The notes beneath the pieces were generated by a model. It was given only the letters and a program-made list of their open reading frames with translations, was not told where the DNA came from and made no database searches. Below are positions 21,125-49,700 of a stretch of DNA of 64,000 bases, piece by piece. This DNA is from Eledone cirrhosa. Taxonomy: Eukaryota. The translations under genes were made by a program, and so were the position numbers. Position 1 is the first letter of the stretch; the number at the start of each line of letters is the position of its first letter. The DNA is taken from contig OZ024746.1 in assembly GCA_964016885.1 (NCBI GenBank), positions 6,944,001-7,008,000 on the forward strand. Reading direction: 5' to 3'.

Positions 21125-21351
21125 TATATATTATATATATATATATATATTATTATATATATATTATTATTATTATATATATATATATTCTCTTACCACT
21201 CAGCCACGCGCCTTCACACATATATATATAATATATATATATTATATATATATATATAATATATATATAATATATATATATATATAATGTATATATATAT
21301 TATATATATATATAATATATATATATATATAAATATAATATATATATATAT

Positions 21352-21382
<31 letters not shown>

Positions 21383-21399
21383 ATGTATATATATATTAT

Positions 21400-21431
<32 letters not shown>

Positions 21432-22013
21432 AATATAATATATATATATAATATATATATATATAATATATATATTATATATATATATATACATAAATAT
21501 AATATATATAGATAATATATATATATATATATATAAATATAATATATATATATAAATATATATATACATAAATATAATATATATATATATATATAAATAT
21601 ATATATATACATAAATATAATATATATATATATATAAATATAATATATATATATAATATATATATTATATTTATATATATATATATAAATATAATATATA
21701 TATATAATATATATATTATATTTATATATATATATATAAATATAATATATATATATAATATATATATATATTATATTTATATATATATAAATATTATATA
21801 TATATATAATATATATATATATTATATTTATATATATATATTATATTTATATATATATATTATATTTATATATATATATATTATATATATATATATTATA
21901 TTTATATATTATATTTATATATATATATATATATATTATATTATATTTATATATTATATTTATATATATATATATATTATATTATATTTATATATATATA
22001 TTATATTATATTT

Positions 22014-22061
<48 letters not shown>

Positions 22062-22280
22062 TAATATATATATAATATATATAATATATATATATAATAT
22101 AATATATATAATATATATATAATATATATATATATAATATAATATATATAATATATATATAAAATATATATATATAATATATATATATATAATATATATA
22201 TAATATAATATATATAATATATATATATAATATAATATATATAATATATGTATATATATATAATATATATATATATATAT

Positions 22281-22311
<31 letters not shown>

Positions 22312-22422
22312 ATATATATATATATATATAATATATATATATAATATAATATATGTATATATATATAATATATATATATATATAATATATATATATATAT
22401 AATATATATATATATAATATAT

Positions 22423-22485
<63 letters not shown>

Positions 22486-22515
22486 ATATATATAATATAT
22501 ATATATATATAATAT

Positions 22516-22567
<52 letters not shown>

Positions 22568-22580
22568 ATATATATTATAT
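21125..22580. repeat. About 1.4-kb degenerate (TA)n tract
   Basis: Direct inspection. Confidence 0.95.
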
Positions 22581-22784
22581 GGAGGCACATGGCTTAGTGG
22601 TTAGAGCATTGTCTTGCAATCGAAAAGTTGTGAGTTCAATTCTCAGACCGGGTGATGTGTTGTTTCCTTGAGCCATACACTTTATTTCACATTGCTCCAG
22701 TTTACTCAGCTGTAGAAAAAAAATGAATACATATACATACATATATTATATATATATATATATATATACATATACATACATATA

Positions 22785-22865
<81 letters not shown>

Positions 22866-22871
22866 TATACA

Positions 22872-22905
<34 letters not shown>

Positions 22906-22906
22906 C

Positions 22907-22948
<42 letters not shown>

Positions 22949-24188: not shown

Positions 24189-25688
24189 CTTACAATCAAA
24201 AGGTTGTGAGTTCAATTCTCAGACCGGGTGATGTGTTTCCTTGAGCAAGACACTTTATTTCACATTGCTCCAGTTCACTCAGCTGTAGAAATGAGATGAT
24301 AGGACTGGGGTCCCTATCATTCCACTGCAAAGTGGTCGTGGAGGTGCCACGGAAAAAAAGCACCCAGCACTCACTGTAAATGAGGTTGGTGTTAGGAAGG
24401 GCACCCAGCTGTAGAAATCAAGCCAGAATCAGTTCCCGTCCCACCCTTGCAGGCAGGGAAAAGTGGACGTAAAATTATGATGATGATGATGATGATATCT
24501 ATATTAGCTCCCTCAATAATTGTTTGTATGAGTTGGTGAAAACATTTAAATATAATTTTACATCTCTTCTTCTCTTACATCTTACTACATTTGTTCCCCC
24601 TATTTCAATTGATGTCCATAAAACTGTAATTAAGTAATTAAGTACTTTATATTAGTCTAATTAACATGTCACTTTATTACTAATTAACATCGTGGGATTT
24701 GAAATCAATTATTGACAATCAATCAATTTTTTTCTGACAACTTCGCAGTTTTTTTTCCTGATTTTAAACTAAAAATATTATTTTATTATAATTGACATTC
24801 TGAAACACAATAAAGATTAAAATGTGTTTTTGTTTTGAGTAATTTATTTTAACGAAGCGATGTTCCGTTTTTATTGATCGCTTGGCAGTATCGGTAGAGT
24901 GTCGGACAACATGCTTTGCAGCATAGAGTTACGGCCCTTTATGATCTGAGTTCAAATCCCGCCGAGGTTAACTTTGCCTTTCATCCTTACGGAGTCGATA
25001 AAATAAAGTACCAGTCACACACTGGGGTCGATTTAATCGACTTTCCCCTCCCCCAAAACGCTGGCCTTGTGCCTATATAAGAAACCATTGATACTAACAT
25101 ACTCAATGAAGAAATAAATTATTGATTTTTGTATTCCCAGTTGTATAAAATAATTGTTTCTACTTTAGGCACAAGGCCAGCAATTACCCAGTTCATTACT
25201 GGTACTTTATTTTATCGACCCCGTAAGGATGAAAGCAAAGTCAACCTCGGCGGGATTTGAACTCAGATCGTATACTCAGTTGTATAAAATAATGTTTAAA
25301 AATATAATATCGTTGATAAACACACGCAAATTTGTGAAGCGTTCCATATTTTTTTAAAGGCCGGTGCCCCAGCATGGCTTTAGCCGGATGGCTGTATCAA
25401 GTAAAAGAGTAAAAGAGTAAATATAAACACATATAACAAATACAACCATTGCCAGGAACCTCACAAAACCAACACCAAAATATATGACCAAAGAGAAAGA
25501 AAGAAAAAAAGGGAGGGAGCAAAGACAAAAACGACCAGTTTGTAATAATTGTTTCTACTTTAGGCACAAGGTCAACAATTTGTGGGGGCAGGGAAGTCGG
25601 TTACCAGTACGTTACTGGTACTTTATTTTATCGACCCTAGAATGATGAAAAACAAAGCTTACCTCAGCGAGATTTGAAATATTATGTT

Positions 25689-25899
25689 ATTTATTTATGT
25701 TCATACACGGGCCAAAGGCGCTGCCCGGGGTTCCAAGGACAAATTTAACCATAGATCCAGAATACAAGAATCATCAAATTATAAACTCGTATAAGCGCCT
25801 GAAGAAAGGTCACTAATTTCATACCTCTTGTATTCTGGAGCTATGGTCAAATTGGGCCTTGGAACCTTGGGTAGCACTTTTGTTCCGTGTATGAACATA

Positions 25900-25906
<7 letters not shown>
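25689..25906. mobile_element. Fold-back element 1 of the cluster
   Basis: Imperfect arms of about 80 bp: ATTTATTTATGTTCATACACGG...CCGTGTATGAACATAAATAAAT. Confidence 0.8.
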
Positions 25907-25951
<45 letters not shown>

Positions 25952-25984
25952 AAGAATATTTTCGAAACAGGGAGCAAGTTTGAA

Positions 25985-26217
25985 ATTAGAAATAGAAGCT
26001 ATCGCAGTATTTTGACTAAAGAAATTATTTAGCCTGATAGTGGGGTTAAGAACCCTCGGAGAAATGGAAAAAGATGAGTATTGACGTACATGGGAGTCGA
26101 ACCCACATCTACGGTTATCCAGACCACTGTGCAACCATTACACCATGTGTTGGTGTAACCCCACTATCAGGCTAAGTAATTTCTTTAGTCAAAATACGGC
26201 GATAGCTTATATTTCTA

Positions 26218-26219
<2 letters not shown>
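25985..26219. mobile_element. Fold-back element 2, with internal tRNA-derived A and B boxes (26082-26150, minus strand)
   Basis: About 63-bp arms; minus-strand TGGTGTAATGG (A box) and GGTTCGACTCC (B box). Confidence 0.8.
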
Positions 26220-26280
<61 letters not shown>

Positions 26281-26539
26281 TGTGGAGAATAGGATTGGCT
26301 GCGTAGTTGCTAGTTAAGTTAGGCTTAAAAATGGAATGAGAATAAGAAGAAATCAAGAACGGAGATGGAGTTTTCCTCATCAGTTGTCTACTGGGGATCT
26401 CGGATTGAAATATCTGAGACCCCCAGTAGACAACTGACGAGGAACCCCCCCTTCCCCTTCCCCATTCTTGCTTCTTATTCTCATTCCATTTTTAAGCCTA
26501 ACTTAACTAGCAACTACGCAGCCAATCCTATTCTCCACA
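26281..26539. mobile_element. Fold-back element 3 between (TA)n tracts
   Basis: Outer arms of about 69 bp are near-perfect; inner arms CCTCATCAGTTGTCTACTGGGG / CCCCAGTAGACAACTGACGAGG. Confidence 0.85.
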
Positions 26540-26568
26540 TATATACATATATATATATATACATATAA

Positions 26569-26651
<83 letters not shown>

Positions 26652-26656
26652 TATAT

Positions 26657-26923
26657 AGGAATTGCTCAAGCATAGAAATACTATAAAGCTTACAAAATAG
26701 GGTGAAGACGGGAAAAGAAGTTGCCACTGGCTGCTATCAGAAATTGAACCCCCATATCTTCCAGATACTGGCTAGACACTTTGACCTTTAAGCTAAGGAG
26801 CCATGATGACAAATTCCTTGCCGGGGTTCAATTCCTCGGGGCGGCCGATGGCAATTTCTTTTAAGGGTCTTCACCCCATTTTTTAAGCAATCGTTATAAG
26901 ATTTCTGTGTTTGAGCAGTTCCT
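26657..26923. mobile_element. Fold-back element 4, with a tRNA-Thr(AGT)-like head (26728-26802, minus strand)
   Basis: GGCTCCTTAGCTTAAAGGTCAAAGTGTCTAGCCAGTATCTGGAAGATATGGGGGTTCAATTTC resembles tRNA-Thr; the right arm is an inverted B box plus tail; solo copy at about 36353-36490. Confidence 0.7.
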
Positions 26924-28060
26924 TTATACTTATATATATATATAAGCTTTTGATTCCAGAGTCGGGCCCAATCGACACAGATCGAACCTTGAGCTGATCA
27001 ATTGCGAAATACGCGTCACACCTCAATAATTGTAATATAAAATTTGACACCTCATCCATATTATATATATATATCATCCATAAAAAAATCTATTGGATCT
27101 TAATATTTACAGTGCAATATTTAACAGTGTAAATCTAAACCGATAACGTTTAAGTTGATGTCAGGATCATTATTGATTAAAAATGTTATGTGCCTATCAT
27201 TGACTTTCCTAACATTTTTCAACTTTCACATAACTTCCATATTTAGAGAGACAAATTGATTTTCACAATATATATTATTCAGAGTTTTAACGTTTTGCTG
27301 TTGATAAATATTGCTTCTTGCGTGTTTTTCTTCCTTGTGTTGAGGCATTCAATATTCTTCTGTCTATTTAGTTGTTTCAAGCTTCACAAATTCCTCTGAA
27401 AGATTGAATGCTTTTATTATTCAAGTCCAAAAAGAAGAGAGGGTTATTTTCTGGGAAAATGTGTTTCAAAAGCAGAGGATCCGCCAGCTAAAATTAATAC
27501 AAACCCAATTACCTTTAAACAGTTGGAATTTCACCATAGTGTGAAATTCTAGCTCAAAATAAACTCAAAGATTGTCGTCTAAAACCTTTACATGTTGATG
27601 ACTTGATTGTTTCGCTCAAAAGTAGATAAAATATCGTAGCATACCGTAACTACATTTTATTGCCCTGCCCACGACTTTGTTCCTTTGTAACTTTCTTAAT
27701 ATTGAATATTTTAAATAAAGTTTCACAGAGATACATTTCCCATGATCTAGATTATGTTGATAAACATTTTTAAACTTTATTTAACATTGTGAATACTTTC
27801 ATTGTTGTATAATGTTTCGTTAATACTTTAATTTTAATATAAGAGACTGTTGTAGTTTGCTTGAAACATTGTATATTGAAAGCTATTATTACCATTTTGA
27901 TAAAGGGATTTTTTCTCAAAATGTAGGTATCTATAAAGAACTATAAGGTACACTCTGACAGTATTGCTATCATTTTTAACATTTATTGTCCAATTCATTG
28001 ATAGCTTTCAAACAAAACACTATTTTCTATTTAAATGTAAACACGGAATATATTTCATTC

Positions 28061-35749: not shown

Positions 35750-36539
35750 CTGTAATAATAAGAATTAGGTTATGTCAAAAACAGTAGAAATAAAGCAAAA
35801 CAAGAAAATATTTAACAAATATGAATTTCTAATTATTGTACAGGGTAGAGGACTTTTAAGTCCAGTAAGACAATCTCTCTAGTGCTGGTGACACAAACAA
35901 TACACCCAGTCCACTCTGTAAAGAGGTTGGTGATAGGAAGGGCATCCAGCTAGTAAAACCCAGCCAAAATTCATCATCATCATCAGTCCAACCTATGCAA
36001 GCATGGAAAAGCGGACATAAAAATGATGACGATGTAGAAATGTAATTACTATTGAAATTCATTTCCATTGAAATGAGAGAGAGAAGAAGGCTGCAGTTGA
36101 CAGCATGAAGGAAGCTTTGGAGCAGGAGGGAGGAGATAATTTGGCCAACACTGCTGACCTACCAGTGAGAAGGTGTTATGGTCGAAACAGCCAATGTTGG
36201 ACACCATCTGATGACATGAAAGCCTCCTGGTGAAGGCTATGTTCAGTGAAGGTGAATAAATGTAAGGCCTCTTCTTGAAGATGTTTGGGAAGATGCAGCA
36301 CAACAATTAAATACAAACCATCAACTCCTTCAAAATCAATACAGTAAGAGTTGTCACGGTCCCTTGGTTTAATGGTTCAAAATAGCCAGTATCAGGGAGA
36401 TATAGGGTTCAATTCCTCATAGCAATGGCAACTTCTTTTTCCGTCTATAAGGGTCTTATTTTATAGCCTCCCTGTACATGAGCACACCGTTCTTTACATT
36501 GACAATTGACAATTTTTGTTTTTTAATACTGTAACTTAC

Positions 36540-39198: not shown

Positions 39199-39819
39199 AT
39201 ATGAAATGGTTCAGGATCCCGACGGCAGAGCTCAAGCTGTTTCAATGGCTATATCTGGACTAAATTAAATTTTTTTAACCTTTTCCTATTACCCACTCTA
39301 CTACTCAAAGTATCGAGTACTCTGGTGCATTATGGTCCACCTAGTTCCTTACCTCACTTCCTTCATTATACATATTTATATATATATAAATGTGTGTATG
39401 TGCAGGTGTGATTCAAGTGTTTTCATTAATCAAATCAATCCCAGTACTTATTTCAATCCAATGCTTATTTTATCGATCTCTATTTATCAAACTGCTAAGT
39501 ATTAGTTTTGAAAGTAACTCAACAATGGCTTATACACCAGTAAACATAATCACAGACTTAATTATATTCATTAAAATTAATTTCCAACAAAAGAAGTACG
39601 TTTGGAACACAACAAGTGAAGTTTAGAATTGAAATCGAAGCTTTCGCCACCCATCTTATTCCATTCAGTGGCTTTATACGCCTCATTATTAGACTATATT
39701 ATAGTAAAAAATATCATGGCAAAGCTACTATTTCTATTTCAATTCCAATTTCCAAGAAATTCTTTTTAAATTGTGATGAAATATGTGAAAATAATTAAAT
39801 ATATAAAATAAATAAATAC

Positions 39820-39867: not shown

Positions 39868-40290
39868 CTGAAAAAGAAAAACACAAAAATTTACATAAAA
39901 TGATAAAAAAGAAAATTTTCTTTCTTCAAATATATCTTGCCAAAGAAGATAGTATGATAAATCTCTTATATTTAGAATTTACTTGATAAGAAATCTCAGA
40001 TTTCTTTGTGAAATCTTTTCTCATGGTTTAATTATATTAATGTTTTGTTCATTTTCTTAATCACACTAATATTATGCTTTTTATACAAACATGAATGTTT
40101 TCTTATTGTTTGCAATATAGTCATTTTTACAACTGTGTTTCCATGCTAACATATTTAAAATCATTTTTATCAGTTTACATCTACTTTCCATATTAGCATG
40201 GGTTGACCATGTTGCCACAGTCTAAAAATAGACAGGTTGGAAAGACTTCATCTTACTCATACATTCCATATTTGGCATGGTTTCTACATC

Positions 40291-41377
40291 GTCTACCATA
40301 AAGTCTACCGTATAACCTATTACCTACCAACAAAACACAGGTCAACATTGTCTACCGTAAAGTCTACCGTATAACCTATTACCTACCAACAAAACACAGG
40401 TCAACATTGTCTACCATAAAGTCTACCGTATAACCTATTACCTACCAACAAAACACAGGTCAACATTGTCTACCATAAAGTCTACCGTATAACCTATTAC
40501 CTACCAACAAAACACAGGTCAACATTGTCTACCGTAAAGTCTACCGTATAACCTATTACCTACCAACAAAACACAGGTCAACATTGTCTACCATAAAGTC
40601 TACCGTATAACCTATTACCTACCAACAAAACACAGGTCAACATTGTCTACCGTAAAGTCTACCGTATAACCTATTACCTACCAACAAAACACAGGTCAAC
40701 ATTGTCTACCGTAAAGTCTACCGTATAACCTATTACCTACCAACAAAACACAGGTCAACATTGTCTACCGTAAAGTCTACCGTATAACCTATTACCTACC
40801 AACAAAACACAGGTCAACATTGTCTACCGTAAAGTCTACCGTATAACCTATTACCTACCAACAAAACACAGGTCAACATTGTCTACCATAAAGTCTACCG
40901 TATAACCTATTACCTACCAACAAAACACAGGTCAACATTGTCTACCATAAAGTCTACCGTATAACCTATTACCTACCAACAAAACACAGGTCAACATTGT
41001 CTACCATAAAGTCTACCGTATAACCTATTACCTACCAACAAAACACAGGTCAACATTGTCTACCGTAAAGTCTACCGTATAACCTATTACCTACCAACAA
41101 AACACAGGTCAACATTGTCTACCATAAAGTCTACCGTATAACCTATTACCTACCAACAAAACACAGGTCAACATTGTCTACCATAAAGTCTACCGTATAA
41201 CCTATTACCTACCAACAAAACACAGGTCAACATTGTCTACCATAAAGTCTACCGTATAACCTATTACCTACCAACAAAACACAGGTCAACATTGTCTACC
41301 ATAAAGTCTACCGTATAACCTATTACCTACCAACAAAACACAGGTCAACATTGTCTACCATAAAGTCTACCGTATAA
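40291..41377. repeat. 59-bp minisatellite, about 18.4 copies, built from a CPSF1 exon 3' end plus its splice donor
   Basis: Minus-strand unit TTATACGGTAGACTTTAYGGTAGACAATGTTGACCTGTGTTTTGTTG|GTAGGTAATAGG. Confidence 0.95.
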
Positions 41378-43014: not shown

Positions 43015-43223
43015 TTGAAATAGAAATAGAAGCTGCACTGTAATATTTTTTTACTATAATATAGTCTAATAATGAGGCATATAAAGCCACTGAACAGAAC
43101 AAGATGGGTGTCAGCTCACATATGAGCTGACTCCCATCTTTTTCCATTCAGTGGGTTTATATGCCCCATTATTAGACTATATTATAGTAAAAAATATTAG
43201 TGCAGCTTCTATTTCTATTTCAA
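43015..43223. mobile_element. Fold-back element with about 100-bp arms
   Basis: Arms meet at CAGCTCA-cata-TGAGCTG; a related half copy lies at 39614-39745. Confidence 0.8.
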
Positions 43224-43285
43224 TTCTAAACTTCACTCACTGTGTCCCAAATATTTATTCTGTTTATATTGATGAAAAGTTTAAC

Positions 43286-46721: not shown

Positions 46722-46987
46722 CTAGAGAATCAAGGTGAAAACATCATTAACTCCCAACAAAGAGATTATCACAGACAGAAAAAATAATAATAATAATAAT
46801 AATTGTTTCTACTTTAGGCACAAGGCCAGCAATTACTCAGTGCATTACTGGTACTTTATTTTATTGACCCCGTAAGGATGAAAGGCAAAGTCTACCTCGG
46901 CGGGATTTGAACTCAGACCGTAAAGAGATGTAACTATGCTGGAAAGCATGGCGTCCGACCCTCTACCGATACTGCCAATCCACCACC

Positions 46988-47019
<32 letters not shown>

Positions 47020-48983: not shown

Positions 48984-49121
48984 CTAAATTAAACAGAAAA
49001 ATATAATAATTAATCACCATCATCATCACTATCATTTTTACGTCCATTTTTTTCCACGCTCGCATGAGTTGGACGAGTATCAAGATTAAAACAAAACAAT
49101 TGTTCCTGCGGAGTGGCCTGA

Positions 49122-49700
49122 CCAACTCCACCCCTGATAGTAAAGAGTAGGGAGGTGGCCCAGAGCTTGCTGCTGCAGGTTGACCAACTCCACCCCTGAT
49201 AGTAAAGAGTAGGGAGGTGGCCCAGAGCTTGCTGCTGCAGGCTGGCCAACTCCACCCCTGATAGTAAAGAGTAAGGAGGTGGCCCAGAGCTTGCTGCTGC
49301 AGGCTGGCCAACTCCACCCCTGATAGTAAAGAGTAGGGAGGTGGCCCAGAGCTTGCTGCTGCAGGCTGGCCAACTCCACCCCTGATAGTAAAGAGTAAGG
49401 AGGTGGCCCAGAGCTTGCTGCTGCAGGCTGGCCAACTCCACCCCTGATAGTAAAGAGTAGGGAGGTGGCCCAGAGCTTGCTGCTGCAGGCTGGCCAACTC
49501 CACCCCTGATAGTAAAGAGTAGGGAGGTGGCCCAGAGCTTGCTGCTGCAGGCTGGCCAACTCCACCCCTGATAGTAAAGAGTAGGGAGGTGGTCGAGGGC
49601 TTGCTCCTGCAGGCTGGCCAACTCCACCCCTGATAGTAAAGAGTAGGGAGGTGGTCGAGGGCTTGCTCCTGCAGGCTGGCCAACTCCACCCCTGATAGTA
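49122..49700. repeat. GC-rich 62-bp minisatellite, about 9.3 copies
   Basis: CCAACTCCACCCCTGATAGTAAAGAGTAGGGAGGTGGCCCAGAGCTTGCTGCTGCAGGCTGG. Confidence 0.95.

Follow-up and report, generated by a model that had tools for sequence, protein, structure and literature searches.

Four fold-back elements are stacked at positions 25689 to 26923 of the 64,000-nucleotide stretch of Eledone cirrhosa DNA analysed here (the window). A first-pass annotation had described them as fold-backs spaced mostly by (TA)n, and all four are present, at 25683-25912 (E1), 25950-26219 (E2), 26278-26542 (E3) and 26652-26930 (E4), with intervening (TA)n tracts at 25907-25943, 26218-26281 and 26539-26657. Complementarity between the two arms is about 75% in E4, 83% in E1 and 95% in E2, and is perfect over the outer 72 nt of E3.

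Table 1. Features of the fold-back stack and of related copies elsewhere in the window.
Feature	Position	Strand	Description
E1 inverted arm	25683..25781	-	5′-truncated 3′ end of Hydra-type PLE
E1 main arm	25779..25910	+	3′ end of coding Hydra-type PLE family
(TA)n/(TG)n target tract	25907..25949		sequence composition
E2 main arm	25950..26145	-	unit positions 8-203: tRNA-like head, T5, tail; long 3′ end at 25950; 96% to family unit
E2 one-sided "tail"	25950..25984	-	stretch between short end (25985) and long end
E2 T5 run, then CC	26068..26072	-	predicted leaky Pol III terminator; only run of at least four T in the unit
E2 tRNA-like head	26081..26145	-	A box 26135-26145; B box 26093-26103; Rfam tRNA 33.6 bits
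E2 inverted arm	26145..26219	+	unit positions 2-15 fused to 105-168; ends at short 3′ end
(TA)n tract	26218..26281		sequence composition
E3	26282..26538		two-armed PLE-type insertion of ~500-nt unit, no tRNA head; both arms long-ended here
(TA)n tract	26539..26657		sequence composition
E4 main arm	26652..26819	-	unit positions 310 to 170; Thr-like head 26728-26802; B box 26740-26750; T run 26713-26716
E4 inverted arm	26823..26930	+	begins at B box (unit position 55); ends at short 3′ end
Solo decayed E4 copy	36348..36490	+	sequence comparison
Second E5 two-armed copy	39594..39744		sequence comparison
E5, sister family of E2	43015..43268		two-armed copy without most of the head; other E5 copies have a tRNA-like head

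Genome searches with each element identified four separate, dispersed, high-copy families rather than one element, and a single composite element is ruled out because the families are found apart from one another. At first look, the 3.0 Gb genome yielded at least 1382 copy candidates for E1, at least 1054 for E2, at least 1750 for E3, at least 812 for E4 and at least 820 for E5. Among 40 random 10-kb stretches, two contained E2 and none contained E1, E3, E4 or E5, which puts the E2 copy number at roughly 10^4 with a wide margin; 40 stretches are too few for an unbiased inverted fraction, and all fractions given here come from best-match sets. The window is rich in (TA)n. Since four separate high-copy families all target (TA)n, the pile-up itself is ordinary, a by-product of the common target. 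Each insertion would leave new (TA)n on either side, where further insertions could stack. Another hairpin family lies within 150 nt in 4 of 39 young E2 loci. Elsewhere in the window, 21220-22945, 40286-41377 and 49118-49700 hold a 1.7-kb (AT)n tract plus young 59- and 62-bp minisatellites. Rfam miRNA matches to E3 and to the TA tracts were dismissed as far under their gathering scores and matching hairpin shape only.

The stacked elements had been proposed as candidate Penelope-mobilised SINEs, a description that suits E2 and E4 but not E1 and E3, both of which lack a tRNA head and give zero Rfam hammerhead matches. Judged from its sequence, E1 represents the 3′ terminus of a coding Penelope-like element (PLE) of Hydra type. 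Upstream, its family continues as an RT-EN frame; the translation of one locus (L090) contains CxCX5C, CxxC and CxH motifs, and in 20 of 30 EN loci (one being the query's own) E1 follows the C-terminus of EN on the same strand. Elements of the Hydra clade carry a C-terminal EN with these three motifs and insert into (TA)n (Craig 2021, PMC8557442). A comparison of L090 with section 11 of that paper finds the CxCX5C linker, CxxC, CxH and TA insertion in the E1 family, and Pfam gave no recognition of the L090 fragments. The ~500-nt E3 unit has no evident ORF in the two long copies examined. Hammerhead-like motifs occur in reversed order in E3 and a relative (26282-26538, L080, L081 and L268:5150-5700), with GAAA preceding the CUGA core, and in many E3 copies the two arms differ within one and the same purine tract.

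E2 and E4 are non-coding tandem units of 258 nt and ~318 nt, each with a tRNA-like head. The A and B boxes reported on the minus strand are accompanied by Rfam tRNA matches at 26090-26145 (33.6 bits) and 26728-26802 (27.2 bits), of which the E2 match is above and the E4 match under the gathering score of 29. ARAGORN called no tRNA in either element at default settings; at a lowered threshold it read the E4 family consensus as Thr(ggt) and that of E2 as Ser(gga). The suggestion that the E4 head resembles tRNA-Thr(AGT) is borne out by ~65% identity to this genome's own tRNA-Thr(AGT), the best among 23 tRNA genes in a Thr-rich sample. Two of the tRNA loci (L329, L331) belong to a tandem tRNA-Thr cluster, and ten others (L330, L332-L340) are tRNA-like genes that are scattered and nearly identical but differ in anticodon; they are probably a repeat of tRNA origin.

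A script-made consensus places the E2 cloverleaf at unit positions 1-72 and a T5 run at 81-85, followed by a small hairpin, a short 3′ end at about 168, a long 3′ end at 203-207, a "leader" at 208-258 and the next cloverleaf. The corresponding ends of E4 lie near 173 and at 221-233. Head and tail are thus both present, as annotated, but family copies are head-to-tail tandems in which a leader of 51 nt (E2) or ~100 nt (E4) can precede the head. Partial tandems comprise up to 2.5 units, with arms of up to 503 nt in E4 and up to 659 nt in E2, a length from which it follows that units occur in tandem. Similarly, the partner arm had been described as a 5′-truncated tail copy; it is inverted and truncated, but in the window E2 copy it opens with head positions 2-15, which meet position 105 at a 3-nt overlap. 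At another inverted junction (L049), the E2 cloverleaf is repeated six times in tandem, 58 nt each. A young E2 subfamily is evident from 37 copies, chosen for identity, that average 0.6% off their consensus, and 40 further matches score alike.

Neither strand of the E2, E4 or E5 consensus shows a hammerhead core motif, and Rfam gave no hammerhead match. Pairing is possible between the end of the leader and the T5 region, and equally stable pairing arose in 1, 7 and 7 of 2000 shuffles for E2, E4 and E5, respectively. Folding z-scores for the whole region are modest (-1.3 to -2.5), so that they do not establish selection on this long stem. The extra stem may have been left behind by an old inverted junction; junctions at two loci (L033, L038) recreate it.

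The mode of insertion was assessed with a main set of 39 head-spanning E2 loci, unselected for upstream sequence or 3′ end, which became 38 after de-duplication. TA-like sequence is found at the end of all 38 copies. An inverted partner is present in 25 of 38 copies (and in 20 of 30 in a second set queried with the E2 tail), and the 5′ ends of the inverted arms fall anywhere from unit position 2 to 258; the other 13 of 38 copies are single-armed. The two arms of one copy typically stop at different 3′ ends, ~38 nt apart in E2 (35-50 nt for alternative ends generally). Sixteen of 18 clean E2 pairs are long/short and two are short/short, with seven other ends set aside (p = 7e-4). The tail-queried set gave 15 of 16 long/short and one long/long, with four set aside (p = 3e-4). 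The window copy agrees, its main arm being long and its inverted arm short. One long and one short end also occur together in 17 of 19 two-arm copies of E3 and in 9 of 14 pairs in the coding E1 family. Inverted arms are present in 17 of 29 E4 copies, comprising seven short/long, eight short/short and two other pairs, and the two E4 ends are separated by 40-50 nt. With 7 of 15 clean pairs, E4 shows the two-end signature less clearly than E2, and a TA spacer within the E4 unit may split the long ends in these counts.

PLE insertions are characterized by partial tandems, an inverted 5′-truncated copy and a one-sided tail of 30-40 nt described as unique to PLEs (Craig 2021, PMC8557442). In vitro work on Poseidon_Ac has placed this tail between two internal start sites and has shown that both strands are cut and extended by the enzyme, with a requirement for sequence 3′ of the start sites (Frangieh 2024, PMC11167929). 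E2 is therefore very probably copied in a PLE-type manner, and the same mode is quite probable for E4. Given this footprint, the two elements likely use Penelope rather than LINE enzymes, and the requirement for sequence beyond the start sites suggests that the leader is likely the 3′ part of their RNA.

The 5′ ends of the arms indicate where such an RNA might begin. Among E2 main arms, 18 of 38 start at unit positions 254-6, compared with 4.3 expected from the rate farther upstream (p = 7e-7, for a position range picked after inspection of the data). The same pile-up appears in 9 of 15 inverted arms (p = 1e-3) and in 5 of 10 tail-queried arms that reach past position 40. The commonest single 5′ end is G255, which follows a C and lies 11 nt upstream of the A box. 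Transcription by Pol III is expected to start at about such a distance from the A box, on a pyrimidine/purine step. The pile-up at the tRNA start thus points to a putative Pol III start site, and a promoter role for the tRNA-like head appears likely from these sequence features. Twenty of the 38 E2 arms extend upstream of the tRNA start into the preceding unit. For E4, 8 of 29 5′ ends are at 308-317, in a set selected up to that point. Truncations also cluster at 57-72 in E2 (the 3′ side of the T arm; L178-L207) and at 30-50 in E4 (the anticodon arm; L208-L237), as tRNA-like structure or base modifications would cause.

The E2 T5 run is retained in 55 of 59 arms and is followed by CC. Internal T runs occur in mollusc SINEs, and a following C favours read-through according to yeast work cited by Matetovici 2016 (PMC4758252). 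One arm (L345) ends within the T5 of the next unit, and arms of up to 659 nt would need repeated T5 read-through or another polymerase.

Three alternatives can be weighed against a PLE-mobilised, Pol III-transcribed element. It is very improbable, and largely refuted, that E2 and E4 are MITE-like DNA elements or SINEs of the ordinary LINE-dependent kind that carry twin-priming inversions, even though SINEs usually consist of a tRNA head and a body and a single arm is seen in 13 of 38 E2 copies. The annotation had named two observations that would speak against PLE mobilisation, a tail matching an RTE, CR1 or L2 3′ UTR and an invariant MITE-like structure, and neither was encountered. The tails are unlike the abundant SINE at 46799-46990, with which they were compared in place of a CR1/L2 reference set, and the E2 tail has no match beyond its own families in 1.47 Mb of sampled sequence. 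No poly(A), (CAT)n or short terminal repeat closes the E2 copies, no LINE-derived tail was recognised among the sequences compared, and the ends run into target (TA)n in 38 of 38 cases. MITEs are rejected because junctions and arm lengths vary in nearly every copy instead of forming fixed inverted repeats. Each arm has its own 3′ end, units are tandem and the two ends alternate.

The other two alternatives accept PLE mobilisation and differ in the source of the RNA. The cloverleaf could serve mainly as an RNase P signal that cuts multimeric transcripts to monomers in place of the retrozyme hammerhead, a role we regard as unlikely. The cloverleaf is full, with a paired acceptor stem that is extended by an 18-25 bp stem in three families, the hammerhead core is absent, and 9 of the 18 clustered main-arm ends together with 7 of 9 inverted-arm ends are at 257/258-6, which fits trimming. 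However, the other 9 of 18 clustered ends, including those of copies without a same-family partner arm, retain 3-5 bases 5′ of the acceptor stem, unlike an RNase P product; the A and B boxes are near consensus, and the extra stem may be the junction relic already mentioned. It is still less easy to favour Pol II read-through RNAs with the tRNA part as a passive captured relic and the 5′ pile-up as reverse-transcriptase stalling. By textbook rules a T5 immediately behind the head acts as a terminator, some arms span 2-2.5 units, and many 5′ ends also cluster where structure would stall copying (57-100 in E2, 30-50 in E4). Yet the 254-6 pile-up is located just beyond the cloverleaf, by which point copying has already passed through the partner strand, and it coincides with a pyrimidine/purine step whose spacing from the A box is the usual one. 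Retention of head and T run by at least four families with two different heads also argues against a passive relic.

A solo E4 copy reported at about 36353-36490 was found in decayed form at 36348-~36490, and E4 is indeed dispersed in the genome. The tail sequence said to be common to E2 and the hairpin at 43015 is real, being part of ~135 nt of homology (score 117; shuffle maximum 56) between E2 and E5. A further family, E6, is a clear relative of E2 (score 55; shuffle maximum 38). Its copy at L269:1213-1500 (G000:C3:270981712-270982000) is two-armed, with an E2-type head end, a T run and a diverged tail. Likeness between E4 and E2 is marginal (score 48; shuffle maximum 44), and E4 has the different, Thr-like head.

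Searches for a partner enzyme returned no coding element with the tail or leader of E2 or E4, and thus no 3′ end in common with a coding PLE, as a non-autonomous PLE would have, among the sampled loci and the best 40 matches per genome search. None of 243 low-stringency E2 tail matches lies outside E2, E4 and E5, all 30 + 30 leader-queried loci map to units of their own family, and none of 50 Hydra EN loci has E2 or E4 ends. One chimera hints at a partner: at L268 a long-ended E2 arm and a 5′-truncated Hydra-type ORF meet head to head without intervening TA, a junction that is unique in the genome search. The Hydra arm has no recognisable terminal hammerhead or hairpin, so a later insertion followed by deletion could also account for it. 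A similar head-to-head junction, at L304, links E2 with an arm of a hammerhead-type family. These are the two chimeras among 43 unpaired E2 arms listed, some of them duplicates; two other candidates (L035, L314) were rejected as nested insertions, and L143 is a further chimera candidate.

Hydra-type EN sequences are very abundant in this genome (37,456 candidates), and other PLE types are also present (L018, L139, L170). A hairpin motif found after the ends of E1 and other Hydra-type families is absent from E2, which argues against Hydra as the partner. A Hydra-clade element is the likeliest partner, although we would place this slightly short of an even call, as a lean rather than a result. 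A young Hydra-type family with open frames of up to 597 aa occurs at L269, and Hydra-type copies at 7.5-kb spacing at L270 (G000:C12:16508000-16527000). The sampled loci also contain a very abundant two-armed family, X (L304:1843-1903 plus ~65 arms), with a type I hammerhead-like core and two 3′ ends ~80 nt apart.

On this evidence, we consider it reasonably likely that E2 and E4 are short non-coding tandem-unit retroelements, transcribed by Pol III and copied in trans by a TA-targeting PLE enzyme. On tandem loci, Pol III would start at the G four bases ahead of the cloverleaf and would read through the first T5 part of the time. The transcript would then span both reverse-transcription start sites and the following leader, and would stop at the T5 of a later unit. 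By analogy with Poseidon_Ac and as the footprint suggests, the PLE enzyme would cut both TA strands and start internally at two sites, one per strand, after which two truncated cDNAs would be joined at their heads. A locus would need more than one unit to be able to jump again. More tentatively, and somewhat against the balance of probability, the families might form a superfamily of true SINEs (at least four families, two heads) that parasitise PLE rather than LINE enzymes. A Pol III start and a leaky T5 would here replace the hammerhead, one unit would give the promoter and the next the enzyme-binding leader and the stop, and the RNA would end in a cloverleaf on a long stem.

The annotation had been aware of no well-described tRNA SINE with PLE-like inverted geometry. 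A search of openly available literature listed no report of a PLE-mobilised tRNA SINE, but tRNA-promoter repeats with PLE-like tandem logic do have a precedent in schistosome Sm-alpha. Mollusc tRNA SINEs (Vhc, Snail and CORE, including octopus OR2) resemble E2 and E4 in having a tRNA head and internal T4-T5 runs followed by C. Their partners, where named, are CR1 or L2 LINEs, whereas E2 and E4 insert with PLE geometry (PMC4758252). E2 or E4 could still prove identical to one of the octopus SINEs OK, OR1 or OR2.

Insertions of EN+ PLEs, including those of the Hydra and Naiad clades, share with E2 and E4 the partial tandems, the inverted 5′-truncated copy, the one-sided 30-40 nt tail (clear in E2) and the TA targets (PMC8557442), and their internal start sites with required downstream sequence (PMC11167929) match the E2/E4 layout. 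Unlike EN+ PLEs, E2 and E4 encode nothing, have a tRNA-like head and have no detectable sequence in common with a coding PLE. Non-autonomous Chlamys elements generally match their partner's 3′ end, while among the loci sampled no coding PLE matched E2 or E4. MRC1 of Chlamydomonas and the animal non-LTR retrozymes are likewise short non-coding tandem units thought to use PLE enzymes, but retrozymes are defined by a type I hammerhead and E2 and E4 are without a ribozyme (bioRxiv 10.64898/2026.07.22.740005; PMC7229834). Term searches of these two texts gave no Pol III promoter; tRNA is absent from the preprint and appears in PMC7229834 in other contexts only.

E2 and E4 behave both as non-autonomous PLEs and as SINEs, and lack what defines a retrozyme, a MITE or a LINE-tailed SINE. 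Annotation pipelines would split their units or mislabel them as tRNA pseudogenes or MITEs. In the literature surveyed, the SINE partners that are named are LINEs, and a tRNA repeat copied by a telomerase-related PLE enzyme would, if true, add a class of SINE partner. E2, a recently active template of 258 nt that has no ribozyme and whose two start sites are mapped, is also a compact substrate for the study of PLE reverse transcriptase recognition in trans.

The closest known system is schistosome Sm-alpha. Like E2 and E4, the Schistosoma elements Sm-alpha and Sj-alpha are tRNA-derived, apparently Pol III-transcribed short units that need tandem copies, and the accounts in PMC6765202 and PMC2770079 name no PLE partner and no inverted or tail geometry in the text available. 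In Sm-alpha a hammerhead cuts monomers and leaves the promoter at the 3′ end, whereas a hammerhead core is absent from E2 and E4, and many of their copies begin with the tRNA head. If the reading of E2 and E4 given here is true, Sm-alpha could be re-read in the same light.
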